DNA of 63,829 nt, filler included, from Hausera hauseri (Eukaryota): NCBI GenBank assembly GCA_046269625.1. It is 12 parts of 12 records of this genome, joined end to end, with 100 filler letters (N's around TTAATTAATTAA, not from the genome) between each part and the next. Parts side by side here need not be neighbours in the genome. Positions count along the whole stretch, not along the records: positions 48,802 to 53,991 come from JBJURY010312276.1; 11 more parts are not named here. One strand, given 5' to 3'. Under the pieces are notes generated by a model that had not been told where the DNA came from, searched no databases, and saw nothing but the letters and a program-made list of their open reading frames with translations. The position numbers were made by a program, and so were the translations under genes. Position 1 is the stretch's first letter; each line of letters opens with the position of its first letter. This document shows, in pieces, positions 10,542 through 63,829 of the stretch.

Positions 10542-10606
10542 TTTCAACAGGAAAAAATTGTGTTTCGGTATTTGAAGTACAAAAAAATTTCAGATTAGAT
10601 TCTTAG

Positions 10607-10709: not shown

Positions 10710-10712
10710 CAT

Positions 10713-11580: not shown

Positions 11581-11690
11581 AATTATATACCCGTCACGTC
11601 GTACGCCCGCTGTTTGCCCCATGGCCGTGGGTCGCGCGGCGCGCAGTGCGTTGGTTACCGCATCGCGCCCATGGCTCCAGCCAGCCCACT

Positions 11691-24835: not shown

Positions 24836-27800
24836 CTAATTTTGCCTTATGTGGAGCTTTCCCTTGATAAAAACAACTCCAGCAAGCCATGGCTCCAATT
24901 TCGCCAACAGTGGCTAACATCGAACAACGTCACAGATTCTTTTGTGCGAGCCAATGGCCTTTTAATTCTTCTGCATGCCAACGTCAAGCAGCAGATTAAT
25001 AATATCTCCGAGCTCCTGCAATCCTCGACACCTTACGAAACACACCGTGAAGCTGTACTGCATGTCACGGATCCTTCTATTGACAATATAATACAAAAGT
25101 ATTTTAATGACCACGCAATAGAAAACTAAAAGTTATCCGACTTTCTCCAAACGGCCATTCTGCAGCTCAGCGCGCTAGACGTGACCCCTACGAATAACGC
25201 GGATTTAATTCGCCGTTATTTTTTATAGTCTTTTCCCACCTCAATTAGTGCCTTACTAACCGTTGTCGAAGAATCCACTGCTATCGAAAAACTGGCAATA
25301 ATTGCTGACAGATCCTTTGAGATTCTTCATACCAACAGTTCTCTCCCTGTTGAGACTGCAACCACATGTGCTCCAACTATAGACACAACATTTTTTACTC
25401 AACAATTGCAAATGATGCAGCAACAGTTTGACAAGATACAACAATCGATTTTGGCCATTACTACTCAACTAAATAATCTTAATGGGCCTCGACGAAGTGA
25501 AACCAGACCTTCAAGGAAGCGAAGCACTTCAAGGCACTCTGCTCGGTCGATTTCACCTGGCGGACGTATGACTTGTTTCTACCACACACGTTTTCGAAAG
25601 GAAGCAAGGAAATGTTTCTTCGGCTGTCGATTCTTTAGTGAGCGATACGCTGTAAATAACCCTATTTGTATATACCACAACAAAGATTAGTCACAGGCCA
25701 GATCATGTGTGCCTGGTTGTAGACATTACAACAAAAAATCTCCTAGCTTTTCTTCCTCTTCTTCCTTTCCTCCAAATCCTCCAAAAACTCATACTTTAGC
25801 CAGATTTTACGGCACCTTCTGGCGCAGGCAACATCGCTCAATCTTCTGGCAGTTTCAACACCGCCTCTGCAGTCTTTTTGTTGAAGGCTGCACTTTTATG
25901 CAGTGATACTTCACATATCGACTTTTTTATAGACTCAGGAGCTGCCTTTTCACTCTTTCCCTTGTCCTTCACCCCTACATCCACTATAATTTCCTGTCCC
26001 CCGCTTTTCACTGCCAGTGAACAACCGTTGCACGTTGCATGGACCACGGAATTGGCTTTCACTTTCGCCAACCTGCCAGATAAGTTTGTCTGGAAGTTCC
26101 ACGTGGCCAATATTAAATCTCCCATTATAGGCTCAGATTTTCTTCCCGCACATGATCTATTGGTAGATTGCAAACACAGCTGTCTTCTCAGCAGGTACTT
26201 GATTTCAACACCAAACATGTCTCTCATGGACAATCCAGCAAGCAATTCATTGAACTCATCTGTAAACATTTTGAGCGCTTCGTCGTCTTTTAAAAAAACT
26301 TCCAATAAAGTTGATATGCCTTGAATTACGAACGACAATCCTAAATCTTCTCTGAAACAAAAATTCGAATTAAGTGTCGACAGTAGCGACCCCAGTTGCC
26401 TTTTATCAATCGCTGCAATTATTCTTTCTAATGATATGCCTCAATCACTCTTATCTCTAGACTCCGATCTTAGATCATATATCACAACATCATGCTTTCG
26501 AATAGTTAAAAGAGACATCAACTACAAGCTCTCGTCCTCAACTTATCATCACAGTAACTGAGCATCAGAGGCCTATCAAACAGAAGGTCAGACCTTTGTC
26601 GCCACGCAGACGTAAAGCTGTGGAGCAGGAGTTTAATGAACTGGAAAGGTCTGGCATCGTTCAAAGATTGAATTCTCCATGGGCCTCTTCTCTTCATGTA
26701 GTTATAAAGAAAAATGGAACCTATAGGCCATGTGGCGACTATCGACAATTAAACAATCTAACTATTACAGATGCCTATCCACTACTACTCATTAAGGATA
26801 TTCTTCATAGCCTCAACAACACCAATACCTATTCTACTATTGATCTGCACAAGGTCTACCATCAAATCCCTGTTGCGCCTGATGACATCCCAAAAACTGC
26901 TGTCATCACACCACTTAGTCATTATGAATACATCTTCATGCCTTTCGGCCTTCGTAGTGCATCTCAGACCTTTCGGCGCCACATTGGCACTGTTCTTTCT
27001 GGTCTTTATTTTGCTCACCCATACATAGATGACATATTAGTCGCTTTCAGCTCCATCAAGCAACATCATGAGCACCTTAGAATTATTTTCTACAGATTGC
27101 ATCAAAGCAACGTGCAAATTAATTTCGCCAGATGCAAATTCTTGTAGAAACGCGTCAACTTCTTAGGCTACATAATTACTCCCAAAGGGCATTCGCCCCA
27201 GCCTGATCGCTTACAACAATTAAAAAATGTTACGTTGCCAACTACTACTACCGATATGAAGAGTTTTCTAGGGACATTGCCCTTCGTACACAAATACGTG
27301 CTACACTGCTCCGAACTAATGGTACCTTTCGCACACCCTTATCTGGGAAGAAAAGACAATTAATCTATTGGACTCTCGATATAGTAAACCAATTTGATCG
27401 CCTTCGTGAAGGTCTAAAAACCGTTGAAATCTTAGCTTTCCCAAAACCAAACGCAGAACTGATATTGTCTACTGATGCCTCAACCACAGCAACTGGTGCG
27501 ATATTACATCATATATACAATGGCGTCGATGAACCATTAGAAATCTATTCCAGAAAGCTCACGCAACCAGAAAGCCGATATTCAACATTCGATCGTGAAC
27601 TCTTGGCTGTAGTTCTAGCAGTAAAGCATTTCGTGCACTTGCTTCTGTCACGTCAATTCACCATCCAAACCGACCATAAGCCCCTACTTCGTATAATGAC
27701 GTTAAAACAGCCATCATCCAAACAAGAACGACAGATATCATACCTGTTGACATTTAGTTTTTCCATGAAATACATTTCAGGCACCAAAAATTTAGTAGAA

Positions 27801-29572
27801 GACTTTGTTTCGTGGTCGGTTAACTCAATTACAGTTCAGCCAATTTTCTCCTGTGAGGTGCTAAAACGCAATCAGCCATCAACGGATATTCTTCAAGCTT
27901 TTAAATCTGTTGAAATAACTGCCGATATCACCTATGACACTTCCAACTCGACCAACAAGAAAATTAATCTTGCTGCATAATTTCAAAAGACAGCTTTCAC
28001 TCATTTTCATTCTCTTCATCATCCGGGTTCAAAAGCTACATTTCGTCTACTGCAACGCCACGTTATATGGACAACTATGCGTACCGATGTACAGAACTGG
28101 GTCAAGGGATGTGTAGCATGTCAGTAATATAAAATCCACAATCCATCAAACCACCACTTTACCACTACCCTTGCACTTCTCATTTTGAATCCGTGCATTT
28201 GGATCTTGTGGGTCCTCTACCTTCCGACAATGGTTATCAATATATTTTATTCATGATGGATTGTGCTTCCTGCTGGCCTAAAGCCGTTCCGCTTCGATCA
28301 ACCAACACCGACTCAGTAGCAGATGCATTTATCAAGACATGGGTCAGCCGTTTTGGCTCACCACGTTACATCATAACGAACCAGGGTCCGCAATTTGAAA
28401 CTGATCTCTTTAAATCTCTGGTAAAACATTTGGGGATAGCCCATTTCAGTACAACGCCGTACCATCCACAAGCGAATGGTCTTCTTGACAGATTTCACGG
28501 TACCATGAAGATCTCCTTAAAAATCTTGGCAAACAACAATCATAATTGGACCTTAGTTCTTCCTCTTTTCCTACTCGGTTGGCGCAACACGCCATCCACC
28601 ACCACAGGTTGTGCAGCAGTTGATGCTTTTTTGGGACACCAGCTCGTGCACTATTTGAACTCTCCAATCTCGATGTAAGTCCGTCAGATGAAGTTATTCG
28701 TGCGATACAGTCCCACTTTGCTGATGTCAAATCACATGACTTCTGCCGTCTTATAAACAAAGACAAATCTTACATCCCAGAAGACTTATACTCAGCCAAG
28801 TTTGTATGACTGAAAGATATATTACCTTCTGGTTTTCGGCCCCAATACGTTGGCCCTTACAAATTACTGAACTTTTCTTCGCACACCGCTACTATTCTAC
28901 GCAAGGAAAAACCTCAAAACGTACACATTTCTAATCTTAAGCCAGCCTTCTTCGTTGACAATGACCAGGATAATAGCATTGTCTCAAATCCCAACTTTAA
29001 CTTCTCTACCCTCGAGCTATCATCTAATTTCCTTGATGATTTTAATCCTTCGCAGCATTCAGTCTCGCGTAACAATCAGTTCTCTTCACTTCCGTCATCA
29101 TCCATTGCTCCTTCAACATAGGCCTCTCCGTCATCGTTTGCACATCCACTACTTATTTCACCTTCATCGCACGATTCGTTGCCATCTACAGTCTCGCCTT
29201 CTGCGCGTGATCCTTTTACCTTTTCAATTTTTTCTCTACTCTTTCTTCTTCATGAATCATCCTTTAAAAACACCACAAAATCTACAGTATCTCTCCCTCA
29301 AACAACTCTACAAGCACCAGTAACATCTAACAGATCACGTCATGTGAGGTTTAATACTTACAGCAGGGAGAAGTTCATAGACGGAGTCCAACGTCTAACA
29401 CGTATCAAAACCAAATAGTTACAAGCTCTATTTTTCTTACTATAATTTCCATTTATTTTTCTCTTAATAGTCCTCATCTTGCCACTGCGGGGGGTGATGT
29501 AGTGCTTAAATCGTGGTCGCACTGGAGGGATTAGCGGACCGGTGAGAGGACTTTCCCCATCATGTGACTACA
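24836..29572 (+). mobile_element. Ty3/Gypsy copy 4, subfamily C: 5'-truncated gag, pol, PPT and LTR-like segment
   Basis: Gag homology begins at LPYVELSLDKNNSSKPWLQF; two CHCC motifs; FFIDSGA; YIDD; HLDLVG; GGGGGGTGA and TGTAGT at 29498. Confidence 0.95.
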
Positions 29573-34172: not shown

Positions 34173-37100
34173 CTGCAAACTGCCATGAACAGCCAGAGGG
34201 AAACTCGGCCACCCTGCATTTTCGGGCCCTCCCCGCCGGGGCGGAAGTCCCAACCGTCAACCCTGCCCCGGTCGGTCGGACGGAGCCTTTCGCGTTGACC
34301 CCACACCACACCCCCAGGCTCATTACTCCCCACTCTATTTCCCTTTTTATAAATAACACACATTTATACAATCACTACATCACATCTACACATTCCAACC
34401 CTTCGTACCTTCATTTCTCTTCTACTCAGTTCTTCCGATTTTTACCTCACCCATAACGGCGCTATCATACCTCTCACCGGAACCCTATTATTTTTCTGAA
34501 GCCGCACTTAACGCCACATACATCTCCGTATCCGTGGTGGCATGAACTTTTCGCCAACCATTAACACCACGGATAAACCCACCACAAAACCAATACCCGT
34601 TATATTACTTCAAAAACCCACTTCTAACTCTGCCAGCAACTTCACAGTCATTACATCTTCAGCTCCTTTCCCTAACTGCACCGAGATTTTTATTGACAAC
34701 CAAGGCTCCAACAAAACCTGGTTGAAATTCCATCAGCTGTGGCTAAAGGCAAATAATATCACTGACTCCCTAACAAAGGCACATAATCTTTTCTTTCTCC
34801 CTAATAATATCAAAACCCGAATTCGCAACATCATCAAAATCTTTGAACTCCCTGACCCATATTTCCAACTTTCCAACGCAGTCCTTAAGATTAAACAACT
34901 TTCCATGGACACGATCATACAACGTTTCTTCCACGACAACGTTATAGGTATCCAACGGCCATCAGAATTCTTACGTATCTCCCTAGCACATCTACATACC
35001 CTCGACGTCACTAAAGAGCACAACCCAGAACTACTACGCCACTATTTCCTCAATGCGTTACCTATCCAAATCCGGGCCCTACTTACCGTGGTGGAGGACT
35101 CCACGCCGCTTGAGAAATTAGCCGAATTAGACGATAGGACACATGACGTTTTACACATAAACTCTCCACCAGTTGTTTCAGCAGCAGTTGCCACTAACAA
35201 TATTCAAACAAATAACACGTCTATAGAACAACAGTTTAATCATCTACGTGCTGAAAATATTGCATTGCATGCAACAATCAACAATATCAATAATAAATTA
35301 AACGAATTGTCTCTGTCACGCCGAGGGGGCTTTGTCACTGACCGCGCTCGTTCTGCGTCTGGAAACCGCTCACCATCGCCTGCGCGGTTTTCAATCTGCT
35401 ATTACCACAGCAGATTCAACACTAATGCCCAGAAGTGCTGCTTAGGGTGCAAATTTTACAACAAGGAATTTTCCTCGGACACTGTTGTTTGCATCTACCA
35501 TGCAAGGTTCAAAAACCAAACTCATAAATGTATTCCAGACTGCACTTTGAAATCAAACACGAATGACGGACGTACTGTCTTTCCTTCTAATAGTCGTCCT
35601 AGTTCGCCCTTTCAAAAAAACTAAGTTGGCCGCCAGCAGTCACGGAAAACTCTGGGAATGGCACAACTTCACATTCTGAACGCCGACACGTCTTTTTTGC
35701 TGTCTTTACTCTAAAGGCTGCAATCACTGCTCCTACAACGCAATCTGTTGACTTCCTCATCGATACAGGTGCGGCGATTTCTTTATTACCACAAACCTTT
35801 CCTGTACAAAATTCCCCATTCAAAATCAAACACTTATACACTGCTTCAGGCCAACCGCTGAACATTTCAGGCATGGCTAAATTATCTTTCACTTTACCAA
35901 ATTTTCCTACACCTTTCCATTGGACGTTCACAGTCGCTAATGTCCAGACGGCAATTCTAGGATCCGACTTTCTCTCACACTATAATTTACTGGTTGACTG
36001 CAGTCAGCGATGTTTGAAGAACAGTACCACTGGCAACGTTTCTGGACATGTCAATAGCATTTCGACTACCGCGCAGTCGACCGGAATGCGGAGGTCTATC
36101 TTAAAAAGTCAATAAATAAATCCAATTTCCATAATAATAATTCTATTTCTAAATTTTTAAATAGTAATATTGATATGCGATCGAGGTTCGATGTCGATAA
36201 TTTAGGTACTGCCACCAACGTTAATTCATTTGACAAAAATACTTCATCCAACATCATTTTCAATTCGACCATCTTACATCAAATACCACTTGACTGAACA
36301 TCACCTAACAACTCACAAATTGCATCCGCAACTACTTAACCCGTTTTACCACTTCCACCAAATCTTTTACAGTTACCTACAACTTTACAGCAATTCGTCA
36401 ATACATCATGCCCACGCGTACTTAAAAAAGACCGTACTTTTACTCCCGCAAACAGTACTTTACACCACAGTTATACAACATCAACGTCCAATACGCCAAA
36501 AGGTACGGCCCCTGTCATCTCGTAGTAGACAGGCCGTAGACGCCGACAACGTTCCGGCATAGTGCGCCGTTCCAAATCGTCTTGGTTATCACCGTTACAC
36601 GTAGTACAAAAAAGGACGGTACTTTTAGACCATGCGGTGACTACCGACAGCTGAACAACTTAACTAGCATGGATGCGTACCCTTTACTATTCATCAAGGA
36701 TATTTTGCATCGCCTTAATTCAACCACCATCTATTCGACCATTGATTTAGCTAAAGCATACCATCAAATATAGGTAGCACCCGAAGACATAAAAAAACTT
36801 CAGTAACTATACCTTTTGGCCTCTATGAATACCTGTTTATGCCATTCGGTTTACGGAATGCCGCACAAACTTTTCAGCGGCACATTGATTCAATTCTTGC
36901 AGACTTCCCGTTTGCACACCCGTATATCCATGATATTCTAGTCGATCCATCTTCGGCCAAACAACACGAGGAACACCTTCGCGCAATATTCCAACGTCTT
37001 AACCACCATAATCTTCAAGCCAGTTTCGACAAATTCTATTTTTTCAAAAATCGCATTAACTTTTTAGGCCACGTTATTACACCAGACGGTCATTCTCCCC

Positions 37101-38216
37101 AATCAGACCGAGTTGAAGGTCTTAAAAACATCCAGTTGCCTCGTACAACCACCGAAATGTGCAGTTTCCTTGGCACACTACACTTTGTACATAAATACGT
37201 ACCATATTGCCCCGAATTGACAGCACCATTCGCACACTTAAGCGGCGGCAAAAAACATCAACCAATCCAGTGGACACCTGAATTGGTTGACAAATTTGAC
37301 AAGCTACACGAAGGAATCAAAACCGTCGATATTCTAGCTTTTCCCAAGCCTGATGCAGAACTTATCCTTACTACAGACGCGTCGACCACTGCAGTAGGCG
37401 CTGTACTCCACTAGATTTACAAAGGAGAAAATCAACCATTAGAATTTTTCTCTTGCAAGCTAACAGCACCTGAAATCAGATATTCCACGTTGGATTGAGA
37501 ATTATTAGCAATCGTTCTCGCTTTAAAGCATTTCTCCTACCTACTTGTCGCTCGTCATTTCACTATACAAACCGAGCCCTTCCACGCGCCAAGAACGACA
37601 AATGTCATATTTATCGACATTTAACTTCGATATTAAACACATTAACGGGGCTAGCAATTTAGTTGCTGATTTATTATCTAGGTCGGTTGGTTCGATTAAT
37701 TTTTCACCGATCTTTACGCAAGACCAACTTTAACAGAACCAGTCACCTCAGGATATGCTTAATTCTTTCAAATCTTGCACAATCGTTGACGGCGTGGCTT
37801 TAGACACCTCCAAACCAGGCCATTCCGTAACAAGTCTTGCACCATCATTGCAAAGGCAAGCTTTTCACAGCGTGCATTTACTACACTATCCTGGTGCTAA
37901 AGCCATCTTTAGTTTACTCCATCGACAAGTAATATAGCCGTCCATGCGTTCTGATGTGCAGGCATGGGTTAAGGAATGTGCGGCTTGCCAAAAATACAAA
38001 ACAGCTAAGCATTTAAAGCCACCTCTATTCCATTTTTCCTGCACATCGGGTTTCGAGTCCGTGCATATCGACATCGTTGGCCCTTTTCCTCCAGACAATG
38101 GTCATCAATTCATCCTCACCATGATGGACCGTTCCTCGTGATGGCCAGAAGCCATCCCTCTGCGGAGCACTAACACAGACACCATAGCTGACGTTTTCAT
38201 TCGCACATGGATTAGC
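34173..38216 (+). mobile_element. Ty3/Gypsy copy 5, subfamily A: GC-rich leader, UBL remnant, open gag (34542-35624), pol as far as IN
   Basis: 360-aa gag with two CHCC motifs; A AAA AAC slippery site at 35615-35621 with pol in the -1 frame; FLIDTGA; RT; RH; IN. Confidence 0.95.
34331..34541 (+). pseudogene. Degenerate ubiquitin-like domain upstream of gag (copy 5)
   Basis: In the gag frame from 34431: SSDFYLTHNGAIIPLTGTLLFF*SRT*RHIHLRIRGG|MNFSP. Confidence 0.85.
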
Positions 38217-43790: not shown

Positions 43791-43917
43791 AGGTAGAAGT
43801 GTCAGCTCTGCCGCACTTCCCAAAAAGTGCCAAGATTGACTCGGGACCGATATTTCCCCACCTATGTCGCAATTCGGAGCATTTTGTTTTGTGGTCAGAG
43901 ACCCCCTCCTAGGGAAA

Positions 43918-44670
43918 GGACCATGATGTCATAGTGGAATTTGTACATCAAGGACTTTGACAGGTCCAGTATTGCCATACCCACATATATGGGCTTGTTA
44001 AATTGCAAGGATGTTTTCAGCATATTTATGCTGACCAAGTTCTCAACATTTATGATGCTGCCGTGGAAATTGGGCTTGGCAATGAGCTTCTTTGCCCGCT
44101 TACACTCAAAGACTAGTTCGATGTTGATCCTGTTGCGGATATCCTCCATGGTTTTGCCGAATACGCTGTTGTTGTAAAGCTTGAATTGGTCATTGTCAAA
44201 GTCGTTCTTGGCTTTTGTTCGCAGTTTTGTATTGAGGTATATGTATGGCTCCAGCCAGTTGGACTGCCTGAACTGTAGGGCCCGATGGATCTTAGTGATG
44301 CAGAGTCCATTTCTTACCGTTTGCTGGAGATTCATGTAGTGGACTACATAACTCTCCCTACTATTTAGATGGCAGAGCAGCTTTCTGTGCTTTCCATAGG
44401 GCGAAGGCTTGCTTTCAGGGAGAAAGGCAGCTGTTGATGCCTGACATGGATAGAAGCCGGATATTCCATATCCACCTCCAGTATATAGCCCGTATCTCCA
44501 GTGGGATGTAGGTCCAATATAGGGATGTTTTCAGGATTGTCGACTCACTTGAAGTTATCATATGGCAATGGGATGCTGATTGCCAATCCATACAAGTTGT
44601 TGGCATCCAAGAATGATATACATGACGATTCCTTTGTTGAGTCGCATTTGGCTATATTGTTAGGGTTTGT
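43918..44670 (-). mobile_element. Protein-primed PolB fragment (Polinton/Maverick-type), paralogous to about 58700-59450
   Basis: DANNLYG, KLYNNSVFGKTMED and KPIYVGMAILDLSK motifs; clear nucleotide similarity to the plus-strand PolB in contig 11. Confidence 0.9.
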
Positions 44671-47296: not shown

Positions 47297-48701
47297 TCAT
47301 TCGAAGGAGCTAATTATTGGATCACGTATCAGAATGTCATTGATCGTCACGTTTCGATAATTGTGGGTTTCCGGGTGGATATCTGGTCGTCGCATCAGGA
47401 TGGAGACTGCTCCATATGTTCGGGTTAAAAGCGCAGTTATCAAGGGAGTCTCCTCATATTAGCCACATGCATACTTGACGTCGAATAGGTATATTCCATT
47501 GTCAAATTTTTTTATTCAGAAAGGTTTCCAATAAGAGAAATCGTTTAAACACTATTGCGTGGTGTAATGGGGTACTGCGTAATTGTGGTTGAAAAATAGC
47601 TTGAAATGTTTTGTTGTCGTAGGCATAATCGAATATTAGTGTTTGAAGGTTATGTCGACCATGGCGTATAGGCAGTAGTAAGGGAATGTCTCCATCTACA
47701 TTGGATATGTGCAAGGGCGCTTGTGATTGAATAAGCATGAGTGTAAAGAAATCATGACACTCGCTCATGATGGCTAAATGAATGGTGGTGTTTCCATTTG
47801 TATCTTAAAACTTTAGTGTTTCAACTGCTTCATCATCTAATTGAGTTATAGCTTCTCTGGCTCTTTCTTCGTTGCCTGATGCTGCTGCTAACATTAATAC
47901 GGTTGTCCCAGCATTGCTTACTATTGTATAGTCTATTGGATTTGCTGGTTTATCAGTGCATCCTAACATATAGCGTTTTTCCTTTGGTAGAGTTTGTTCT
48001 TTGTTGATTTCTACATAAGGGTAGTATTCGTCTTCCTGGATGATTAATAGCCTTTTCTCATCGCCGTAGATTTCAAAATCATATTCCAGACTGGTTAAGA
48101 GGATTTCGAATGGTATGTTATCAAATGTTGTTATAAGAGGGGTTGTATCTCTTTTCTCGCGTTTATGTTTATATACGCATATAGCGAGGATTACTGCTAT
48201 GATAAGTATTACGCCGATGGGTGCTACTATTAATATTAGCAGGAATATATTATAATCTATTTGGAGTTGTTTTATTGGTTCAACTGATTGTGATATGATG
48301 ATCAGTGTTTCATTGTCTTTAGGAGGATTAGTAGATTTTCTAAAAATGAATTTCCATTCTTTCATTATCTAGTCGATAGTTGGAAATCTAAATAATGAAT
48401 TTACTCGATTTTTGAGTGTATTGACCTCTAGTAATGCAACTGTCTTTTGTTTTCGTAACGGGTCATAGTAAGGTAATTGGATATGGACTAGATAAGGATA
48501 ACCTGATATTAACTGAGTACACTCAACGTAGGTGCTGGTGATTAGAAAGCAAGCATCAATGGCGTTTTCTAATGTGACAATAAAATCGGGATTAGGTAAG
48601 CTGAACATTACACGATCGGATCTCACTTGAAGATAAATATCCAATGGTCTGAATAGAATTATTTTGATTTGTTCCGGAGTTTGTCTTAATCCTGTTATTA
48701 G
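47297..48701 (-). pseudogene. Single-pass membrane protein with cytoplasmic ankyrin repeats (Notch-like), intronless, degenerate
   Basis: Three track ORFs share one frame. TM IFLLILIVAPIGVILIIAVILAICVY-KHKREKR; ANK motifs GTTVLMLAAASG, DTNGNTTIHLAI, DGDIPLLL, STPLHHAI and (shifted) EETPLITA. Confidence 0.75.
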
Positions 48702-48801
48702 NNNNNNNNNNNNNNNNNNNNNNNNNNNNNNNNNNNNNNNNNNNNTTAATTAATTAANNNNNNNNNNNNNNNNNNNNNNNNNNNNNNNNNNNNNNNNNNN
48801 N

Positions 48802-51392
48802 TTGTCTCATATTTTGAGGGGAGCTTTGAACTTTGATCCAGTATTTTGCGTGTGGCACACAGTTTGCAACTATCACACCATTCTTGAACATCTTTCGTCA
48901 TAATCGGCTAAACGTACTTTTTTTTCAATTTACTTATAGTTTTTCGAGTCGATTGATGTCCACCGAGAAGTCCATCATGGTATTAAGTCAATAGTACTCA
49001 TCTGTTCTTTTTAGTTATTACTAACGCTGGTCCATCTTGGTGTATATAATATAAAAATCCTTCATTCTCCTCGTAGGCATCGCTAAATCGAGCCAGGTGG
49101 CGGGCTAACTCCTTATGTTCTGGTATAATTTTACTCTGTATGTAGCTTCTAATTGACTTTATTTCGACATCCTCTTGTTGGTTCTCCTTTATCTTTGCTA
49201 CAGACCTATCCATGCTCCACACAGCTGCAACTACTTCTTTCCTTTCTTTTGGCGGTTCCTTCATTCCCGATAGGTAGTCTGCATTAGCATTTCGTGTTCC
49301 GGGTTTATATTGGAAATTTCTCATGTAAGGTTGCAATTTGAGAGCCCATCGTAATAAGCGACTATTTGGGCTTTCGTGTTGTTTTAACCACTGCAGAGGT
49401 CGATGATGTGTATATATTAACAATGACTTATTCTCACTAATATATGTGAGAATACCTCCAAGGCGAATATTAAGGCCAATAATTCCTTTTCAATGACCGC
49501 ATATTTCTTTTGGTGTTTATTTAGTTTTCTTGATGCATAGGCTACTGAGTGTTCTTTTCCATCTTCACCCTTTTATGATAAAACCGCGCTGACTCCATAG
49601 TCGCTTGCATCTGTGGCTAATATGAAGGGTTTAGTCATATCTTGGTAGATGAAAATTGGCTCATTTAATAATTTTTCTTTTAAGCTTTCAAATGCGTTTT
49701 GACATTCAGCGGTCCATAACACCTTCTCTAAATCTTCACGCAATAACTCGTAGAGTGGTCGAGCTATTTTGCTGAAGTCTTTTATAAATCTTCGATAATA
49801 ATTTGAAAGTCCTAAAAATCGGCGTAATTCTCTCACAGTGATCGGTTTCGGAAAATCTTTGATTTTACCTATCAGCTTATCCTGAGGTTTTACACCATGC
49901 CTATTAACTTGATGTCCGAGGAAGTCGACTTCTGCCTGGGCAAAGGAACATTTCTTTGGATTTATTTTGAGACCCATTATTTCACATCTGTCGAAAAGGT
50001 CCTGCAAATCCTTCAAATGTTGATGGAAATCTGATGATGCTATAATTATATTGTCGATGTATACCATGGCATGTGGTGCGTCTAACAGTAGTAATTGCGT
50101 TCCTCGTTGAAATGTAGGCGGTCTGTTTTTTTAATCCGAATGGCATTTTATTAAATTCCCATAATCCTTCGCCTATTAAAAAGGCCGTTTTTGGTTTGTC
50201 CTGTTCTTTTGCTTCCACCTGCCAATATCCTTTCTGTAGATCAATAGTGGTAAATATAGTTGAACCGTGCAATTTGTCCAATATCTCGTCGATACGGGGA
50301 TACGTATCCGTCTCCGTTATTTCGTTTAATTCTCGATAATCTATACAGAACCTCATAGCTCCATCCTTCTTTTTTACCATGATCACTGGTGCGGTCCATG
50401 ACGAACAGCTAGATCGAATTATTTTAATCTCCCTCATTTCTTTTATGATTTTACGGGCCTCCTGCTTTTTATCATAGGCTAGTCGATACGGTCGTCTCTT
50501 TCAGGGTTTTTCCTGTCCCTTTTTTAATTTAATGGCGTGCTGTATCACTTTCATTGTTCCTAAATCATAGTCATTCTGTGCAAATCTGTTATTATTTTTT
50601 CCAGAAACTGTATTAACATTCCTTTCTCCTCCTTACTCAATACTTTATTATCTCGCAATTTTTCTTCCAAATTAAAACTGACACTTTTAACTCGGTCTTT
50701 ATTTGTTTCTATCTTCAACTTCGCCGTCATCATTTCTTCAATTTTGTCCACATCCGCAATTATGGAATTAATTTCCTCTTTTGATACTTCCTCAACCATC
50801 GTTATTTGTCCCACTCGGGTATCTTTTCTTAGTTTCTTTTCTTTATTCCCCGTATTGCAGATCCTTAAATGAATCATTCCATTTTTCACCTTGTCTAAGT
50901 GTGGTGCGATAAGAATGTCGTGTTTCTCCATTACTCGCGGGAAAGGTTCGAAATACACGGGTGTAATTTATCCTCTCCTTCTATTCTCCCAGGTACTACT
51001 ACCTCGGAACGAGGGGGAATAATTACATCTTTAATTAGAGAGACCGATCCTTCATGTTGACAAGCATACGTTTTAAGTTGGCCTGTCTTCATATCGAGAT
51101 ACGCATTTTTTAGTTGGTTCAATACATCACATCCAATCAGTATTTCATTGGTAAGATTCTTCGCTACTCGAATGGTGTGATTTAGTGTTTGATTACCTAT
51201 CTTCATCTGTGCATCTAGAACCTTTTTTATTTCTTCCTCCATGCCAAACGTTCCCACGTTGATTAGCATCGTGGTTGGTTTTCTTAACTTTCTTTTTAAA
51301 TCTTTGGGCAACTGACTTTCTCCCATTATCGTAGTCGTAGATCCCGTGTCGATTAACACCGTTAACAGATATCCATTTACTTCGATGCCCAT
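48802..51392 (-). mobile_element. Ty3/Gypsy pol (PR-RT-RH-start of IN) of an env-carrying element
   Basis: VLIDTGS, RFCIDYRELN, DLQKGYWQ, MPFGL, VYIDNII, ATDASDYG and RLLRWALKLQ motifs. Confidence 0.95.
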
Positions 51393-51743
51393 CTCTGGTC
51401 TCGAGGGTGGCTGTGATTTGTTTTGTCTTTCGTTTTACACGTAGGTTCATGGATTAGTGGTAAAGGATTTTCTTCGTAACTTCATCTCATAATATTTGAT
51501 ACGTGGAATACATTCCGCCGTGTTTCACGTATCGCGGAGATGAGGGATTTATTACCGGTTGCTCATTATAAATCTGTCCGTGGTATTCATTGGCAGAATC
51601 CAATTGTAGTAAATCGGTTACCAGTTTTCGTATGTATTTTGATTTCCGTAGTCTTAGGGAAATCCGTTTAAATCTCATTAGGTATCTACGGCTTTTAGAT
51701 TTGTTATCCGAGCCGTCATTGTCGTTATCATCATCTTTGTTGT

Positions 51744-53772
51744 TCAATGTACTGTATGGAGAATTCCTTTCAGCCCCGTTTTTTTTTCCTTCAATATTTT
51801 TCTTTTCCATTTTGCGTCATGATTGGCTAAGAAACAACTTGCTGCTGCAGGAATTATAGCTATTATAATTTTCCAGGAACATCCTACTGCTGCGTGAATT
51901 CCATATCCTTTACCAAGGGCAGTAAATATTGTGCGTAAAGCACTAATGATGAAATATATTGCCAAGAATACCGAAGTCGCTTGCCCAAAGTATAAGAATC
52001 TTCCCCACATTTTCTCAATGACGTTTTTCCTGACCTTCTTTAAATAATTCTTTCCCACTAAATTTTCCCATTTTGGTGAACCTTCTCCATCCCACATCAC
52101 TCTTCTCGTTATTTCCGTTATTATCCTCTGTTTTTGCTGCGGGAATAGTAGCATACGTCGATAATCTTCTAAATTATGTTGGGTGTAAATTCCTCCTTAG
52201 GAAATCTCAACAAGTGGTTCAAATTTCTGATTTCTATGTAAGTTAATTAAGCTTAACATCTCCGGTTTTGGTACTGGTTCTCTTTTTGGCATCCTGATCC
52301 AATTTTTCTCATCCAAATTAAACATAGGTGACATATTGAAGCTACAATTATCCAACTGTGTAGGTTTTGCATTAGGCTCCAACAGTATCCTTGTCACAGG
52401 TATTATATATCTGGGTTCCATATTATAAATAACTGGTAGTTCGGAAGTGCATTCTATCGTTGGTCGTATCGTAACATCTACCTTTTTGCATTCAATCCTT
52501 ATTAATACTCCGCCCATTACTCTTCCTATTACTCCGTCACCAAAAGGCATAACAGGTGCCACCATTTCCGGATTCGTTATTACTAGAGCCATTTTGTTTC
52601 ATTATTTCGTAGTTTAACTTACATTCGTTCATTATTATTTCTCTATAGAGACTCCAGATTTCTTTTCTTACATAGTTAATTAAGAAATCGATTTTGCTGT
52701 CAAAATATTGCGTTAGTTTTATATCCTTCTTATCCAGCTTCGCCTTCGCTTGAGCTATTTCTTTAGCAGACAGATAAATGCCTTTATAATTGGTTTTGAG
52801 TATCTCTTCGTCACATTTGCTTATTGTCCCGGCGACTTTAAATCGCATCATATCTTCCGGGTTTTCCGAATAGACCACCGTTGCCACTTCCGTCATCCTT
52901 ATTTCTTTAAATCCTTCTCAATAAGTCGCTGTTTCTTTCTCGGCCGTCTTGTCTACGGTTTTGTTGAATTTGCCTTGCTTCAGCAGGGTCAAATGACAAT
53001 TATTTGAAGACGTTTCCCACGTCATTTTTGATTCTCCAGTATCGCATTCGCCATTATCGTATTCGCATTCACTCATCGTTGTCATCAATTTGGTTTGTGC
53101 ATCGAACAACGCTTTGTACTCCTTTAACTGAACTTGATAATCTTCTATTGCCACTGTTCTAGTTGCAATAAATCCTCCAACATCGTAGTTTACTCCATCG
53201 CAAGTTCCTTCCAGGGTTTTGTCTATCCTTCCTGCTCTGAAATTTCGAGTGTACTTTATTTTATGCCGCACTGCGGGTATCTGAGCGTTTTGTATTGTTA
53301 TTATTCCGATTTTAAAAGCGTCTTGGCATTCCGACATTGATATTATTATCGGCTCAAATAATGTGGTTGGCTCGATGATAGCGGAATTGCCTGAGTAGTA
53401 CGTGCAGTTAAATAGAAAAAAGGATTTCTTCACGTAACATTCTCTGATTTTAACTTTGATGAATTCGGACTCCTGATATATCCAATATCTGCGACCACTG
53501 GTTGTCGTTAATTGCTCGGGGTCAGTCTCGGGGCATTTTTCCAAGTCTACTAAGGAATATTTTTGGCCTTCCTTGGGCTTTGAGCACTCATATGCTACGA
53601 TTCCTACCGCCTTGGGCATGCAGATGGATGCTCTTAGTAGGAGTTGTAATGCTTCCATGAATGACATCCCAGTGATGCCCTGTCTCGTAGTATTTGGCGG
53701 GTTTGGAGTTATTCCTTCAGATGAGCTTCTATATGCTTTTGGTCTTATTTGGTTACTCATTAAACTCGGCAT
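51744..53772 (-). CDS. Chuvirus/herpes-gB-like (class III) envelope glycoprotein, frameshifted, upstream of protease
   Basis: Signal-like segment, then IVAYECS...YSLVDLEKC...IYQ...VKIRECYV...FNC; CEYDNGEC, CKLNYEI, CKKVDV.IR...CTSELPV...YI.P.TRIL; two C-terminal hydrophobic helices. Confidence 0.8.
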
Positions 53773-54091
53773 CCATCAGCCTCTGCGATGTACCCAATTT
53801 TCTAGCGTATCTCGTAGTATCTTAGCCGTTATATTTCGTTCAATTTCTTCCAAATTCTGTGTTTGATAGTTAATAACAATTACTTTATATAGCAAATAAG
53901 CGATAGCTGTTACGAACTTTTCTCTACTAATTCCGGTGGGAAACATTTTTTCTCGAATATCGTGTTCGTGCATTTCATTAATTCGTTCTTCNNNNNNNNN
54001 NNNNNNNNNNNNNNNNNNNNNNNNNNNNNNNNNNNTTAATTAATTAANNNNNNNNNNNNNNNNNNNNNNNNNNNNNNNNNNNNNNNNNNNN

Positions 54092-56379: not shown

Positions 56380-59300
56380 GGTGGGACCGAAAGCACATTT
56401 TCAGACTACTTCTATTATGATCACAAACATCATTTGAGTCACTTCGCATCAAAATCAAAGAAGGCCATCTATAATGTGCAACATAATGTTGATGCATTTG
56501 CTTCGCAGTATTCTGCCTCGCATTATGCTGCTGGATCTGGTGCAGCAGCTGCGAGGCATATTAGAGAATAGAAACGCGCAGCCGCATCATGTGCAGCAGC
56601 ATCAGGCGCAGCCACATCATGCGCAGCAGCATCAGACACGGCCACATTCGACGCACCGGCTCCATCAGAAAGCCAAAGACAGCGACCGGTTGATGCGGCA
56701 GCATTAAAGCGAAAATGCTGCAAATGTTATTGATGCAACTGGTAAAACAACCCTCGAAGACTTTCTCTTATACGCGAAGGACGAGAATGAGGGGATTTTT
56801 CAGGACAACATGGCTGAGCTCATAGCCCTTAAGGTGAATATGAAACTGGAGTCCACATACATCAATGTTGATAGCGAAGAATCCAATGGAGCCTTCAAGA
56901 CCAAAAATAGACCCATATTGGAAAACACCAATATAGCAGAATGGATCCAAAAGGCACACGAGAAGCTGATCCACGAGTCTGAGACGAGCCAGGAAAAGAA
57001 GAGTGGATGGACTCCGGTAACCATCAAGAGATTGCTTCATATATTCAGTTCATATATTTAGCTTTCTGATTGGATCGCTAATATAAATCATGTGTCAATG
57101 TCCATAATAACGACATGTGTTTCATGTATGCCATTCTATCAACACTCGTGCGGGATCAACATAATGCCTCACGAGTTTGGCTATATAAGGATGTGCAGCA
57201 CAACTATGACTTCCAATGTGTTAAGTTCCCGCCATCCATAGATGAAGTCAAGAAGTTCTGTCGAATCAACAATATATCCATCACCATCATTGGATTGGAT
57301 GATGAAGACAAATTCTATCCCCTGCATATATGCGATATTGAATTGGAAGATCATAAGGATCTGCTCCTACCAGACGATGGGGAAAAGAAACATTATGTTT
57401 GTATCAAGAACTTTGAGCGTCTAGTTAGATCTCAAATTAAGAAACACACAACAATAGTCGAAATATGCAAACGGCGCTTTTCCAATTTCAGCGGCGGAGG
57501 CCGTGGACAAGCTTGCAGAGCACAAAATGTACTGCAACAACAATTATTTTATCAGGCTAGAATTTCCCAAAGGAGTTCGAGAAGAAGATCGAGGTCCCAA
57601 TAATTATTTATTGCGACTTAAGCGATCCTGTATCTAGTTCACAGCTGCAGCCCCAATCCCCTACAAAGCAGCACAACGGCATACCCATATCATGAACTTT
57701 CATCGTATTGCATGAATGCCAAGACTGTACAGTGAACCATTTCTATTCAGGGGTCCAGGCGCAGCAGCTGATTTCATGAAACGACTTGAAGACATGGCTC
57801 ATAGGCTTGGCGATATGCAGCAGCAGCTTAAGGATACAATGAGAATGTCGAAGAAGCAAGAAGAATGGCGCAAGGCAACAGTATGTTACTTGTGCTCCAA
57901 ATCATTCACTAAGGAGAATCATAAAGTTAGGGATTATTGCCATTTAACAGGTGCATATCGAGGCGCGGCATACAACAACTGCAGTCTTCGCTGCAAAACA
58001 TGCATATGTGCCTGTAGTGTTCCATAATCTCAGTGGTTATGATTCCCATTTTATAGACCGAGAATTACGCAACATTTATGGTAATATAGATGTTATCCTA
58101 AACAATGAGGATAAATACGTTGCATTTACGAAGCATGTTGGGAAAATCAGGCTTCGCTTCATAGACAGTTTTCGTTTCATGTCGTCTTTACTTGACAGTT
58201 TAGTGAAGAACCTCCCTGCAGAAGAACTCAAGGAGACGAAGCGATTCTTTCCCACGGCATTTGATCTAGTCAAAAGGAAAGGCGTGTTTCCCTATGACTA
58301 TATAACTTCATGGGAAACACTGGATATGACCTCATTGACGGACAAAAAGGACTTTTACAATATCCTCTTTGATTGCGATATCAGTGATGCTGACTACCAG
58401 CATGCCCAGAATGTCTGGGATGCATTCCAATGCCGAACATTAGGAGAATACAGCGACATATACCTCAAGACGGACGTGCTACTTCTGGCAGATGTCTGAG
58501 AGTTTCAGGGATGTTACAATGACGAGCCATGCATTGGATCCGGCTCATTTCTTTACGGCTCCAGGAATGAGTTGGACAGCAATGCTGCACTATACTGGTA
58601 TTAGGTTGCAGGTCGTTAAGTATTACGACATAATCCTTATGATCGAGAGAGGCATTAGAGGCGGAATATGCCAGGCCATTTACTTGTATAGCGAGACCAA
58701 CAACACGTATATGGCCCAGTATGATCCATCCAAGGAATCCTCATATATATCATACCTGGATGCCAACAACTTGTATGGATGGGCAATGAGAGCCCCATTG
58801 CCATATGATAACTTTAAATGGGTCGAGAATCCTGAAGACATCCCTATATTGGACCTAAATCTTACTGGAGATACGGGATACATATTGGAGGTAGATATGG
58901 AATATCCGGCTTCCATCCACGCAGGGCACCAACAGCTGCATTTCCACCCTGAGAGTAGGCCTCCACCCGATGGAAAGCAGAGAAAACTGCTTTGTCATCT
59001 GTGTAATAAGGCGAGGTATGTAGTTCACAACATCAATCTCCAGCAAGCTCTTAGACATGGACTTCGTATTACCAAGATCCATAGAGCCCTGCAGTTCAAC
59101 CAGTCCATGTGGCTGTAGTCATACATAGATCTCAATACGAAGCTGCGGACTAATGTCAAGAACGACTTTGAGAAAGATCAATTCAAACTGTATAACAGCG
59201 TTTTTGGCAAGACCATGGAGAATATCCGCAATAGGATCAATATTGAGCTAATATGTAACTGGAAGCGGGCAAAAAAGCTTATTGCCAAGCCTAACTTCCA

Positions 59301-59616
59301 TAGCACCACCATATATATTGAGAACTTGGTAGGCATCCATATGCTGAAAACATCATTCGTATTCAACAAGCCCATATGTGTGGGTATGGCAATATTGGAT
59401 CTATCAATGACCTTGATGTACAGATTCCATTACGATATAATGGTCCCCAAGTTCAAGTCCATGCAACTGATGTATATGGATACTGATAGTTTCATCTATC
59501 AGATCCATAAAGGGGACATTTATGACGACTTTGTCCAATTGGTTCAACACATGGATACCTCGGACTATCCAAAGGATCATTTCAACTATTCAATTGCCAA
59601 TAAGAAAGTCCTTGGG
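56380..59616 (+). mobile_element. Polinton/Maverick/adintovirus-type protein-primed DNA polymerase B with an endonuclease VII-like domain, degenerate
   Basis: KSGWT, CFMYAIL, CYLC..KVRDYCHLTG.YRGAAYNNC (EndoVII), FHNLSGYDSHF, RKGVFPYDY, YLDANNLYGWAM, FGKTMEN and YMDTDS motifs. Confidence 0.92.
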
Positions 59617-59892
59617 NNNNNNNNNNNNNNNNNNNNNNNNNNNNNNNNNNNNNNNNNNNNTTAATTAATTAANNNNNNNNNNNNNNNNNNNNNNNNNNNN
59701 NNNNNNNNNNNNNNNNAAGTTTGCTAGTTATGGGCCCAGCAAACCTCAAATTAACAACGGGGCACTTATAATATATGGGGCATTTATTTGCGACGAAGCA
59801 TCCATTTTAAATTCTCCACCTTAAATAATCGTCTTTTGCAAGTTGTGTGCAAAACTGCAGAAGTTATTAGTGCCAAGGAAGAGTTTCTGTGG

Positions 59893-60438: not shown

Positions 60439-60685
60439 GCTTATGCAAAGGAGTACGAAAAGTATTTAGGTTTAATGAATCTGAATATAAATGTATGTGA
60501 ATGAGCATTTTAGGACGTATGAGTCACAGCATCATTCCGCAGTTGAAATCAAGATGGAAGTTGAAAAGCACATAATACAAAAAGATATTTTGGAACAGTT
60601 GATTCCTTCAGTTATTATTATTGGACCTTTTTTCTTTAATACAGAAATTGTAAGGCAGGCTTTTTCCCAAAAGAGAGAACTAATA
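60439..60685 (+). pseudogene. DNAH1: Axonemal dynein heavy chain (DNAH1-like) stem fragment
   Basis: AYAKEYEKYLGLMNLNI...(shift)...KDILEQLIPSVIIIGPFFFNTEIVRQAFSQKR, recognised from the DNAH1 pattern AYAKEY.KYL...PSSIIIGPFYINT..V.Q.LS.KR. Confidence 0.8.
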
Positions 60686-60700
60686 AAGCATGTTTCAAAT

Positions 60701-61114
60701 ATCTGCGAAAATCGTGCTGTACATCAGCAATTATCGATTGGGAAAATAACGAGGATGGTGTTTGATAAGAGATATCTATTCGTCAGTTGTGCTTCGACCC
60801 TTGCAAAGTACATGTCATATTGTTTGCAATATCGTGGCGATGTAACACCCGTTGAAGTTAACCAAACAATAAACGAATTGAAACAGAAATCCGAGATCCC
60901 ATTCGCTCCGTGGTGTCCAACCGGATTTAAAATTGGTATAAATTCTCAACCAGTGGTTGCTGTTCCAGCATCTGATATGGCCCAAACAAGCCGGTCAGTG
61001 TCTATGTTGACGAATACTTGTGCAATAAACCAATTGTTGTCCAATTTGAATCATAAGTTACAGTTAATTTTCTCAAAACGTGCATTCGTCCTTTCGTTTG
61101 TGGGAGAAGGAATG
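60701..61114 (+). pseudogene. TUBA: Divergent alpha-tubulin C-terminal fragment
   Basis: HQQLS, KYMSYCLQYRGDVTP, WCPTGFKIGIN and KRAFVLSFVGEGM motifs. Confidence 0.92.
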
Positions 61115-61564
61115 AAAGCATGTATTCGTTTCTTAACTTTCGTTGGGTTGAAACACCAGGAAATTGCTTTATCGTTACTTAAAAAAGTCGCATCAAATAT
61201 TTCCAGCTTCAGAAAACTTCTCAGTAAACGAAATCTTAAGGACAATAAAAATTTACGAACATGTACATTGGATTTCTACATTGTCAGCCCTCCATTTCAA
61301 AACATCCAGTCTGTTCGTGACTCCTCTTTGAAACCAACAAGATCATTTGGCAATAATCCCATGTACATTGTGCAAATTTCACAACAATTTCCTTCCACTC
61401 AAACAGCAAATTCGTTGTTTAAATGTCTGAAACCAAGCAATCCTCCATCTGTCGAAGCAGTTCAGTAGTCGATATCATTTAAAAGTAATTATGATTTACA
61501 TGTGGTTACGCCATCATTTGTAATGCTAAACGACTCTATTGATAGCCTGTTTGAGGAACTAAGC

Positions 61565-63829
61565 GTGTCCGCCCCCGTTGCGCTGCATCGCCTTTCTTTT
61601 CTCATCTTTTCTAATCATAAATATATCCACACATTAAGGGTTACGCAAAAACAAACAGCTCATATTCTGTATACTGAATTGTCCTCTTTTTTCGGCTCCT
61701 CCGATTTTTATGTCATGCACAACGGTCTAATTTTGCGACCTTTCGACTCTCTTTCATCCTTTGCACCTGAGAAATATTCCATCACTCTCACTGTCAATTT
61801 TCGCATCCGTGGTGGATCAGACCTTGATCCTTCTACCGAACACTTAACAAAAACTAGATCTGGTCGTCGTCCTGTCGACACCACACCAACAATTTCTCCA
61901 AATCTCCCCTGCACGGATTTCTTTCTATACAAGGCGAACTCTAGTCGTACCTGGCTGCAGTTCCATTTGAAATGGCTTAAAGCCAATCATATTACAGATC
62001 CCTTTCTGCGGGATAACAGTATGCTGCTATTACTCCCAGCCAACATCAAACAGCAGATAAGTAATTTGGCTGACATACTCTCCTCTTCAAGCCCGTATGA
62101 TATGAAGTACGAATCGGTTCTACATGTTACCGACCCTTCCATCGACAGCATAATCCAGAAGTATTTCAACGACCACGCCATTGGAAATCAAAACCATCAA
62201 ATTTCCTTAAAACTGCCATCTCACAACTGAGCTCTTTAGGCGTGACTCCTATAAATAATGCCGATCTTCTCCGTCTGTATTTTTTTCGTATTTGCCAACC
62301 TCCATTCGAGCTTTGCTTACTTTAGTAGATGACTCTACTGCCCTCGAAAATCTCGCCTTACTGGCAGACAAAAGCTTTAATATTCTGCAATCTAATAACT
62401 TGCAGCCAGTAGCCGCAGCAATTGCACACACACTGCCACAAAACACTTTATTTGCACAACAAATGCACATGATTCAGAAACAGTTAGACACTCTCCAACA
62501 AGCAATCTCTGCGATGACAGCCCAACTCAGTGACTTATCCGTGCGTCGAAGAAGCGAAAATCGTATTTTTCGCAATCGCACTTTTGCCAAGCACTCTTCT
62601 CGTTCTAAATCTTGAGATGGTAAAATGACGTGCTTTTATCACAACAAATTCCGCAGAGATGCAAGGAAATGTGTTTTAGGTTGTCGATTTTACGATGCAC
62701 GATATGCCGTAGACAATCCAATCTTCATCTATCACGTAAAGTACCAGTTCAAGGCTAGGTCATGCGTGCCAGGATGTAAACATTATAAAAGAAATTCTAG
62801 TTCTCCATTTTCTTCGCCTCCGCGCACTCACCATTCCTCCTCTTTCTACCAACAAGTATCAAAAAACCAATAATGCCACCAGACGCCACGGCACACTCTG
62901 GTACAGACAATATCATTCAATCTTCTGGCCGTTTAAACACCACCTCTGCAGTCTTTCTGTTGAAAGCTGATTTGTTTTTTGGAGAGACATCACACATAGA
63001 CTTCCTTATTGATTCAGGAGCTGCTTTTTCACTCCTCCATTTGTCTTTCGCTCCTACATCTAACATAGTTTTCTCTCCTCCACTTTTCACTGCCTGTGGT
63101 CAACCTTTGAACATTGTAGGTACCACAAAACTGACCTTCACATTCTCCAACTTACCACGGAAATTTTCCCGGAATTTTCACATAGCCAACATCAGATCGC
63201 CCGATTTCTTGGCTGCATACGATTTGTTAGTCGACTGCAAGCATAAATGCATCCTGCGCAGAAACTTCGTCGCAAATTCTAATAAATGCTTATTAAACGA
63301 CCTGTAGGACACTTTGTCTTCCTCTGCTCATTCAAATGTCAATTTGACATCCTGTTCATTGGTTGACAATAACACATTTAACATTTCATCAATATTTTCA
63401 ATCTCATCAAATTGGAATAAATTAATCCTGAAACAATCGGCTGAACCAAATGTCCTTAATGAAGCATTTATTCAATCTACATCAATTACAGCCACCGACT
63501 CTTTCAATGATATGCTCTCATCATTCTTATCGTTGGGTTCTGACCTTAAATCCTACATTAAAACTTCTTGTTTCCGTACTCTTAAGAAGGACATCAATTT
63601 CAAGCCGCATTCTACAACATATCACCACATAGTCACCAAACACCAAAGACCTATCAGATAAAAGGTAAGGCCACTTTTACCTAGAAGACGAAAAGCTGTT
63701 GAATCAGGGTTCAATACACTCGAAAAGGCGGGCATTATTAAAGATCCAAATTACCATGGGCTTCGCCTTTGCATGTTGTGACGAAGAAAGATGGCACATA
63801 CAGACCATGCGGTGATTATCGGCAATTAA
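61565..63829 (+). mobile_element. Ty3/Gypsy copy 6, subfamily C: UBL-gag-PR-start of RT
   Basis: Gag CA region, two CHCC motifs, A AAA AAC at 62861-62867 with pol in the -1 frame, FLIDSGA, RPCGDYRQL. Confidence 0.95.
61592..61816 (+). CDS. Intact ubiquitin-like domain fused to Gag (copy 6)
   Basis: 75 aa, aligns to ubiquitin: HTLRVTQKQTAHILYTELSSFFG ~ [42 protein letters not shown] ~ QRLIFAGKQLEDGRTLSDY; ITLTVNFRIRGG ~ STLHLVLRLRGG. Confidence 0.88.

Follow-up and report, generated by a model that had tools for sequence, protein, structure and literature searches.

The window analysed here, 63,829 nucleotides of the Hausera hauseri assembly GCA_046269625.1, consists of 12 unrelated contigs joined by artificial spacers (N44-TTAATTAATTAA-N44), and adjacency across the 11 spacers is artificial. 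An envelope-carrying Ty3/gypsy retroelement occupies the minus strand of exactly one 5.2-kb contig, JBJURY010312276.1 (positions 48802-53991). Since the element takes up this whole contig, the neighbouring window sequence is uninformative on it. The contig ends cut the element inside a Bcl-2-fold domain and inside the integrase, and the flanking spacers at 53992-54091 and 48702-48801 leave Gag with the 5′ long terminal repeat (LTR) and the integrase core with the 3′ LTR, respectively, outside the visible window.

All features of the element lie on the minus strand. The first is the C-terminal half of the Bcl-2-fold domain (BH1-BH2 region, 53758-53991), cut by the contig end and 56% identical to the corresponding stretch of the closest relative, protein P0003, which aligns from the first codon of the contig with 45% identity over 459 amino acids (aa). 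It is encoded by a short open reading frame (ORF) in frame with the envelope glycoprotein (Env) and separated from it, as an earlier sequence-only reading of this DNA had stated, by one TGA (53776-53778), which falls within the BH2-like motif. An internal signal-peptide-like segment (53596-53652), weak in this copy with a Kyte-Doolittle (KD) hydropathy peak of 1.46, precedes the Env ectodomain, a predicted class III fusogen. The N-terminal part of the ectodomain (52597-53595) matches PF24664 (E 1.1e-29, profile positions 4-350/653), is 52% identical to P0003 and contains 11 cysteines and four sequons. The C-terminal part (51999-52596) matches the same family, Monjiviricetes_fusion (E 1.8e-46, positions 347-604/653), together with a weak BDV_G match, and shares 36-41% identity with L001, P0006 and P0016. 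A transmembrane helix follows (51942-51998, KD 1.65; 1.67-2.54 in the 15 relatives with such a tail), then a second hydrophobic, Cys-containing segment (51825-51881, KD 1.85) and a charged linker between Env and protease (51405-51824), whose frame is broken and which was translated in three frames; this linker gave no Pfam match better than 0.009 and no usable ESM Atlas match, the latter being evidence neither of novelty nor of absence.

Downstream of the linker lie an aspartic protease (51108-51404; RVP E 6.5e-11, gag-asp_proteas 9.6e-8), a putative dUTPase-like domain (50770-51050), a reverse transcriptase (RT; 49717-50584; RVT_1 3.2e-11 and 1.2e-10, 50-59% identity to L001), an RNase H (49325-49716; RT_RNaseH_2 3.7e-14, RT_RNaseH 2.8e-7) and an integrase zinc-binding domain cut by the contig end (48802-49000; Integrase_H2C2 5.8e-5, collinear with L001 to aa 2682). 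The dUTPase-like assignment comes from a profile of this region (A5), for which all nine PDB sequences at E≤10 are dUTPases or dCTP deaminases, the best with an E of only 0.46; Pfam dUTPase was found in one of the eight members of the alignment, weakly (E 0.052). The Pfam scan covered nine translated pieces, both Env pieces being read through stops as X, and the Pol pieces matched gypsy-type families only, with no BEL/Pao-type family among the matches. Combined with hydropathy, the scan agrees with the order given by the sequence-only reading, from the short ORF and signal-like segment through the glycoprotein, two hydrophobic segments and linker to protease, RT, RNase H and integrase.

This copy is dead. 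With frames aligned to intact relatives, it contains eight in-frame stops and at least five frame changes. In addition to the TGA in the Bcl-2 half, stops interrupt both Env parts (52918-52920 and 52197-52199), the RT (50501-50503), the RNase H (49573-49575) and, three times, the integrase zinc finger, and the frame changes near 52596 in Env, near 50960 in the dUTPase-like domain, near 50120 in the RT and near 49435 in the RNase H. The catalytic motif of the RT is degenerate. No LTR-like repeat was found within the contig, where the longest direct repeat measures 23 nt at 83%.

To assign the glycoprotein, its fold was computed on the natural relative P0004 (32-38% identity over both halves) from a 42-row alignment, giving a model with a predicted local distance difference test (pLDDT) score of 81.2. 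The best PDB matches of this model are herpesvirus gB proteins (herpes simplex virus (HSV) gB, E 1.4e-13), and the best matches among viral models are chuvirus glycoproteins (Tacheng tick virus 4 G, E 1.4e-42). The modelled fold thus identifies Env as a class III fusogen, as the sequence-only reading had predicted. The domain I-II region of P0004, including all eight cysteines, also matches by eye the row for Schmidtea errantivirus 1 in PMC13524379 (supplementary file 2).

Relatives of the element were collected with a full HMMER search using the Env piece, which returned 98 proteins, and 25 of them, picked for length, were scanned by Pfam. Protease and/or RT follow Env in the same protein in 10 of these 25, and zf-CCHC or Retrotrans_gag precedes it in four; in P0025 and P0220, a CCHC knuckle, Env and integrase lie in this order within a single protein. 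Alignment A4 as query returned two related loci. One of the two loci fetched, L001, contains at the DNA level a stop-free ORF of 3426 aa that encodes a Bcl-2-like domain (profile E 1.2e-17), Env (4.7e-94), protease, RT, RNase H and integrase, and seven segments of it, spanning Env to the integrase zinc finger, are collinear with the contig. The unbroken natural ORFs of L001, P0006, P0016 and P0025 are all collinear with the contig. Gag is found upstream: P0003 starts with an Arc/Ty3-type capsid (E 0.007) and a CCHC knuckle, and Gag also precedes Env in L002, P0007, P0025, P0031 and P0220. The second locus, L002, runs from Gag-CCHC through a ubiquitin-like domain (8e-5) and a Bcl-2-like domain (5e-24) to Env, and by similarity to L002 the ubiquitin-like domain is also present in L001, P0007, P0218 and P0220. 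These relatives bear out the proposal of the sequence-only reading that a chuvirus/gB-type glycoprotein sits between Gag and Pol in one Ty3/gypsy polyprotein; what it sought in intact copies was found for the single ORF (L001, P0025, P0220) and for Gag upstream (P0003, L002), and LTRs were not seen in L001.

The same relatives bear on whether Gag-Bcl-2, Env and Pol are separate ORFs in this sub-lineage, joined by read-through, frameshifting or splicing. Such an arrangement would fit the in-frame TGA before Env both here and in L002, the out-of-frame linker between Env and protease in this copy, and the wording of PMC13524379, which in its available text speaks of GAG, ENV and POL ORFs. However, the stops in the window and in L002 lie at different places, P0003 reads on where the window copy has its stop, and in P0009 and L001 the frame stays open all the way from Bcl-2 to protease. 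The contig also carries seven further stops and at least five frame changes, some of them in RT and RNase H, and decay explains the breaks. We therefore consider separate ORFs improbable.

No related loci were found in viral contigs (three queries), in genome contigs or, with P0003 as query, in metagenome contigs; the protein homologue search with the Env piece at longer lengths returned nothing, and that with the Bcl-2 profile gave back only the two proteins put into it. Run X1 yielded 6064 contigs over all 30 bins, most of them 85-95% alike, and two of the eight pieces listed bridge the junctions from Env tail to linker (51496-51848) and from linker to protease (51368-51695). As this run is possibly the source sample, it shows multiple copies and is not independent support. 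No RNA data set was listed among those containing the stretch.

The sequence-only reading had taken the short ORF at the contig end for Gag, and this assignment has to be replaced: the ORF is the C-terminal half of a Bcl-2-fold domain. In P0003, the capsid and CCHC knuckle end about 400 residues before the stretch aligned to the contig (400-550 aa for P0003 and L002). A family profile built from the window piece and six homologous stretches matched Bcl-xL with an E of 1.1e-4, all 60 matches listed belonging to the Bcl-2 family, and Pfam Bcl-2 was detected in six of seven family members (best 2.1e-5). For the AlphaFold model of the P0003 domain (pLDDT 82.8), all 42 Foldseek matches listed were Bcl-2 family proteins with TM-scores of about 0.5-0.66. 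In a full structural alignment with VIA, the top 34 rows were Bcl-2-fold proteins (Z 12.8-6.2; top 20, Z 12.8-10.1), compared with Z of at most 5.4 for unrelated folds. A Bcl-2-like domain is also present in both L001 and L002. Its BH2 motif is kept (W-x-x-x-x-G-G-W), and BH1 is degenerate: the Trp and Gly found there in Bcl-xL are gone, and a basic residue is mostly kept. Because of this degenerate BH1, classical BH3 binding is uncertain. The ESM Atlas gave no usable match for the domain, from which neither novelty nor absence follows.

That the short ORF is nevertheless a Gag tail, with its Bcl-2 likeness a generic helical-bundle match, would be in line with the lack of any Pfam match at E≤10 for the window piece alone, a best Foldseek E of only 3.5e-3, and the fact that unrelated helical bundles can reach Z of about 13. 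Against this, the sequence profile, Pfam, Foldseek and VIA all single out Bcl-2, unrelated folds scoring clearly lower, and the distance to the capsid and CCHC knuckle in P0003 and L002 leaves the ORF well behind Gag. BCL2 is moreover reported at the same position in Burro elements (PMC6431247, available text). A Gag tail thus appears highly improbable.

The kinship of the RT was assessed in a comparison of 44 chosen RT-RNase H regions, 10 of them env-linked or close and 34 taken from the RT homologue search; the latter was crowded by multi-RT gene models, with PF24664 in three of 120 rows, and served only as an outgroup source. The ten regions closest to the window RT come from eight env-before-pol proteins and two pol-only relatives. 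A quick 47-row tree was followed by a careful 26-row tree, which lost 22 of these rows (outgroups, P0102 and the three other copies from the window) and gained L001; P0133 was left out of both. In the 26-row tree, the window RT lies inside the env-before-pol clade with moderate support (ultrafast bootstrap (UFBoot) 87, Shimodaira-Hasegawa-like approximate likelihood ratio test (SH-aLRT) 90), and it groups among gypsy-type RTs in a tree composed without BEL/Pao, copia or named GyDB references. In the Env tree, a quick tree with many long branches, the window Env and P0003 are sisters (SH-aLRT 99) and nest among the Envs that are embedded in polyproteins (clade support 88). Bcl-2 occurs on four separate branches of this tree, which fits ancestral presence with losses. 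The collinearity of the intact ORFs with the contig and the placement of its RT among env-before-pol elements show that Env and Pol are parts of a single element. Solo and Pao-linked chuvirus glycoproteins are common in invertebrate genomes (PMC7642597, as far as its available text goes) and the window is rich in nested transposon debris, yet a separate insertion of the glycoprotein beside a gypsy pol, as a chuvirus-derived endogenous viral element or as the env of a BEL/Pao Anakin-type or other neighbouring element, is scarcely credible: no LTR or repeat lies between the parts, the pre-transmembrane motif is 219 codons from the protease motif, compared with 126-223 in all but one of 12 relatives and 548 in the remaining one, Env and RT both indicate the same family, the junction is spanned in other copies, the Pfam matches are of gypsy type and include no BEL/Pao-type family, and the collinearity of L001, P0006, P0016 and P0025 largely refutes it.

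The architecture itself is already published, although the sequence-only reading implied that it was new. According to the available text of PMC6431247 (Arkhipova and Yushenova), the giant Burro/GYPSM1 Ty3/gypsy elements of planarians encode Gag, a Ubi2/SUMO-like domain, BCL-2, Env, protease, a dUTPase-like domain and RT in one ORF, with Env between BCL2 and protease and matching mononegavirus fusion glycoproteins, and the dUTPase-like domain between protease and RT; decayed Burro copies are reported in Dugesia japonica. BURRO1 is expressed on PIWI loss, as stated in the accessible part of the SMEDWI-2 paper (PMC8532177). Like Burro, the element on the contig has a BCL2-like domain directly before a mononegavirus-like Env, Env ahead of Pol (and, in intact relatives, in frame between Gag and Pol), and protease, a putative dUTPase-like domain (weak here), RT, RNase H and integrase in this order, and the ubiquitin-like domain before BCL2, off the contig here, is seen in relatives (L002). 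Unlike Burro, it has a single protease, separated from Env by a short linker (several relatives have repeated protease-like domains); the Burro extras (MATH, BIR, ankyrin, Smc) and the giant size (>25 kb) would lie beyond the contig ends. No tested defining feature of Burro failed. The element operates as Burro elements do, with membership in the strict sense not proven.

A second published group, the GAG-ENV-POL 'ancient errantiviruses' of Platyhelminthes, Nematoda and Bryozoa (PMC13524379, Chary and Hayashi, in the portion available), carries an HSV/gB-type ENV and shares the gene order, the class III Env upstream of Pol and the Ty3/gypsy Pol with our element. In domains I-II, the Env of our element is similar to the Schmidtea rows labelled 'Platyhelminthes_C1a', and by eye the eight cysteines coincide. 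The copies catalogued there are intact, in contrast to the decayed copy on the contig. The same paper also lists 114 arthropod gypsy elements with a chuvirus-like glycoprotein, and its main text contains no mention of Bcl-2 or polyprotein. Anakin BEL/Pao elements carry a glycoprotein of the same family (chuvirus-like, PF24664) with a Pao-type Pol (PMC7642597, available part), whereas the contig has gypsy-type protease, RT, RNase H and integrase with Env ahead of Pol and its nearest RTs are those of gypsy-type env-before-pol elements; it is thus not an Anakin element. Nor does it belong to the classical errantiviruses of insects such as gypsy and ZAM, for which aphid P0168 served as representative and with which it shares a Ty3/gypsy Pol and an envelope gene: these have a baculovirus F-type Env after Pol instead of a PF24664 Env 5′ of Pol, and the P0168 RT-RNase H is only 41% identical and falls outside the env-before-pol clade. 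The Bcl-2-fold domain resembles viral Bcl-2 proteins (CNP058, BHRF1, A179L, M11; poxviral A52/N1-type) in its fold (Z 6-13) and in the kept BH2, and differs from them in being embedded in a retroelement polyprotein and in the lost Trp and Gly of BH1.

In all, the contig very probably holds a defunct copy of a Burro-like LTR retroelement of the Ty3/gypsy type, whose active form would encode one long polyprotein, comprising Gag (capsid and CCHC), a ubiquitin-like domain, a Bcl-2-fold domain, an internal signal peptide, Env, a transmembrane helix, protease, a dUTPase-like domain, RT, RNase H and integrase.

Such a polyprotein poses a topological question, as Gag and Pol both need the cytosol and Env lies between them. 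One signal pass plus one transmembrane pass is therefore required. In relatives, a hydrophobic stretch (1.0-2.4) directly precedes the A-Y/F-D/E-C start of Env, at the place of the signal-peptide-like segment. Only eight of 15 relatives show a peak of 1.3 or more (1.3-1.7) for the second hydrophobic segment, which is weaker there than the transmembrane helix. With one signal pass and one transmembrane pass, this segment should not be a second pass, and furin would be kept from the linker; the segment is probably a membrane-hugging cytosolic helix. The RVKR in the linker (51430-51441), which the sequence-only reading had pointed out, lies in another frame than the protease, and R-x-K/R-R occurs in the linker of only two of 12 relatives with a downstream protease motif. 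As a furin site it was rejected, being unconserved, out of the protease frame and in a presumably cytosolic linker.

A mechanism from threading through the endoplasmic reticulum (ER) to budding and fusion, which we regard as reasonably probable as a whole, can be proposed from this topology. The polyprotein would be threaded co-translationally through the ER membrane, with Gag, the ubiquitin-like domain and Bcl-2 kept in the cytosol and Env brought into the lumen by the internal signal peptide. The cleaved signal peptide may stay behind as the C-terminal anchor of the Gag-Bcl-2 piece, at the place of a Bcl-2 tail anchor, while the transmembrane helix would take Pol back to the cytosol, tethered to the Env tail, until the element's own protease frees the parts. 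Gag, Env and Pol would thereby begin on the same membrane at 1:1:1, favouring the budding of enveloped particles, which could fuse through the class III Env with neighbouring or germ-line cells. Within the open literature, subscription papers lying outside it, no published structural test of an element Bcl-2 domain or of the signal peptide as tail anchor was found. That the Bcl-2 domain dampens host cell death or ER-stress signalling is a tentative proposal, falling just short of an even chance; otherwise it would have a non-apoptotic scaffold role, as poxviral Bcl-2-fold proteins do, or no function.

Several points weigh against the Burro-like polyprotein and the roles given to its parts. There is no continuous ORF in this copy, and single-ORF coding is taken over from relatives. 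One of these, L002, is open from Gag to Env apart from an in-frame TGA (3058-3060) that separates the Bcl-2-like domain from the signal peptide of Env and reflects either decay or read-through. LTRs, Gag and element size are outside the view of the contig, and L001 and L002 are both incomplete. Both folds were modelled on relatives (P0003 and P0004) and not on the contig copy. Regarding the Bcl-2 domain, the Pfam scores lie below the gathering cut-off, the Foldseek and single-piece Pfam results given above are poor, and the domain was found in only seven of the 25 stored relatives in which 90 aa or more precede Env, six of these seven having been used to build the profile. Support for the RT clade falls short of the starred threshold, and the branch leading to the window copy is long (0.86). 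The topology was derived from hydropathy and logic only, and the likeness to Burro from the published description.

The relatives show further features of their own. L001 contains two extra cassettes, each running from a signal-like to a transmembrane-like segment (4748-5300 and 9047-10040), one between protease repeats and one after integrase, and paired hydrophobic peaks after RT also occur in P0006, P0016, P0101 and P0220. The L001 cassettes are possibly additional membrane proteins produced by the same kind of threading; no family was found for them, and a fibronectin-like identity, suspected by eye, gained no support from Pfam, PDB or pairwise tests. Downstream in L001, a separate ORF (10617-12107) encodes an exonuclease domain of the RNase T/DEDDh type (E 1.4e-5). 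P0006, P0007, P0101, P0218, P0220 and the L001 ORF each contain between two and four motifs resembling a protease, some of which lie behind integrase. P0101 carries C2H2 fingers and ankyrin repeats, and ankyrin is also found in P0222. The env-pol polyprotein P0016 (HBK71150.1) is annotated as a protein of a Flavobacteriaceae bacterium metagenome-assembled genome, where it is most likely animal DNA binned there.

The remaining contigs of the window, separated by spacers at, for example, 4101-4200, 9934-10033 and 59617-59716, contain remnants of decayed transposons and a small number of gene fragments of animal-like character; no tRNA genes were found in the window, and the Env and Bcl-2 profiles had no match in it besides the element. 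Decayed Ty3/gypsy-type copies that lack env lie at 4157-5588, 12067-15599, 18713-22847, 25229-28678, 34512-37555 and 61469-63307, and the three tested (13681, 26560 and 36594) cluster by themselves (SH-aLRT 100), at a great distance from the element with env. Fragments of a protein-primed type DNA polymerase B at 57082-59664 (plus strand) and 43895-44530 (minus strand) (PF03175 E 3.8e-7) are presumably Polinton/Maverick-like debris, and an RT-like ORF of 373 aa at 7935-9056 (minus strand; RVT_1 1.2e-11), unlike gypsy RTs, has what we take to be a Penelope-like look. Pieces resembling host genes or pseudogenes comprise a tubulin C-terminal fragment (60491-61468, plus strand; 2.2e-26), a ThiF fragment (10599-11381, plus strand; 6.8e-11) and a piece with ankyrin repeats next to a hydrophobic stretch (47502-48368, minus strand).

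The decayed copy belongs to an already known kind of element. As the copy is dead and the architecture known, it adds little alone, and its value is comparative: it is a compact, deep-branching relative of Burro-type elements. It brings structure-level support for two domains that the 2019 review, in its available text, assigned by motif or HHpred only (PMC6431247), and it exposes a topology in which the Env signal peptide is predicted to anchor the Bcl-2-fold domain. A broader view is rather unlikely at present: Burro-type elements would form a wider and older enveloped clade with an ancestral, working viral-type Bcl-2, the Env signal peptide serving as its tail anchor and tethering Gag to the ER, so that budding was coupled with a death block, and this copy would come perhaps from a host outside Burro's planarian family. 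The literature searches brought up no study that tests this view. To our knowledge, viral Bcl-2 proteins are known only from large DNA viruses. If the Bcl-2 domain blocks apoptosis, it would be the RNA-element counterpart of these proteins, with a bearing on how such elements persist in stem-cell-rich animals.

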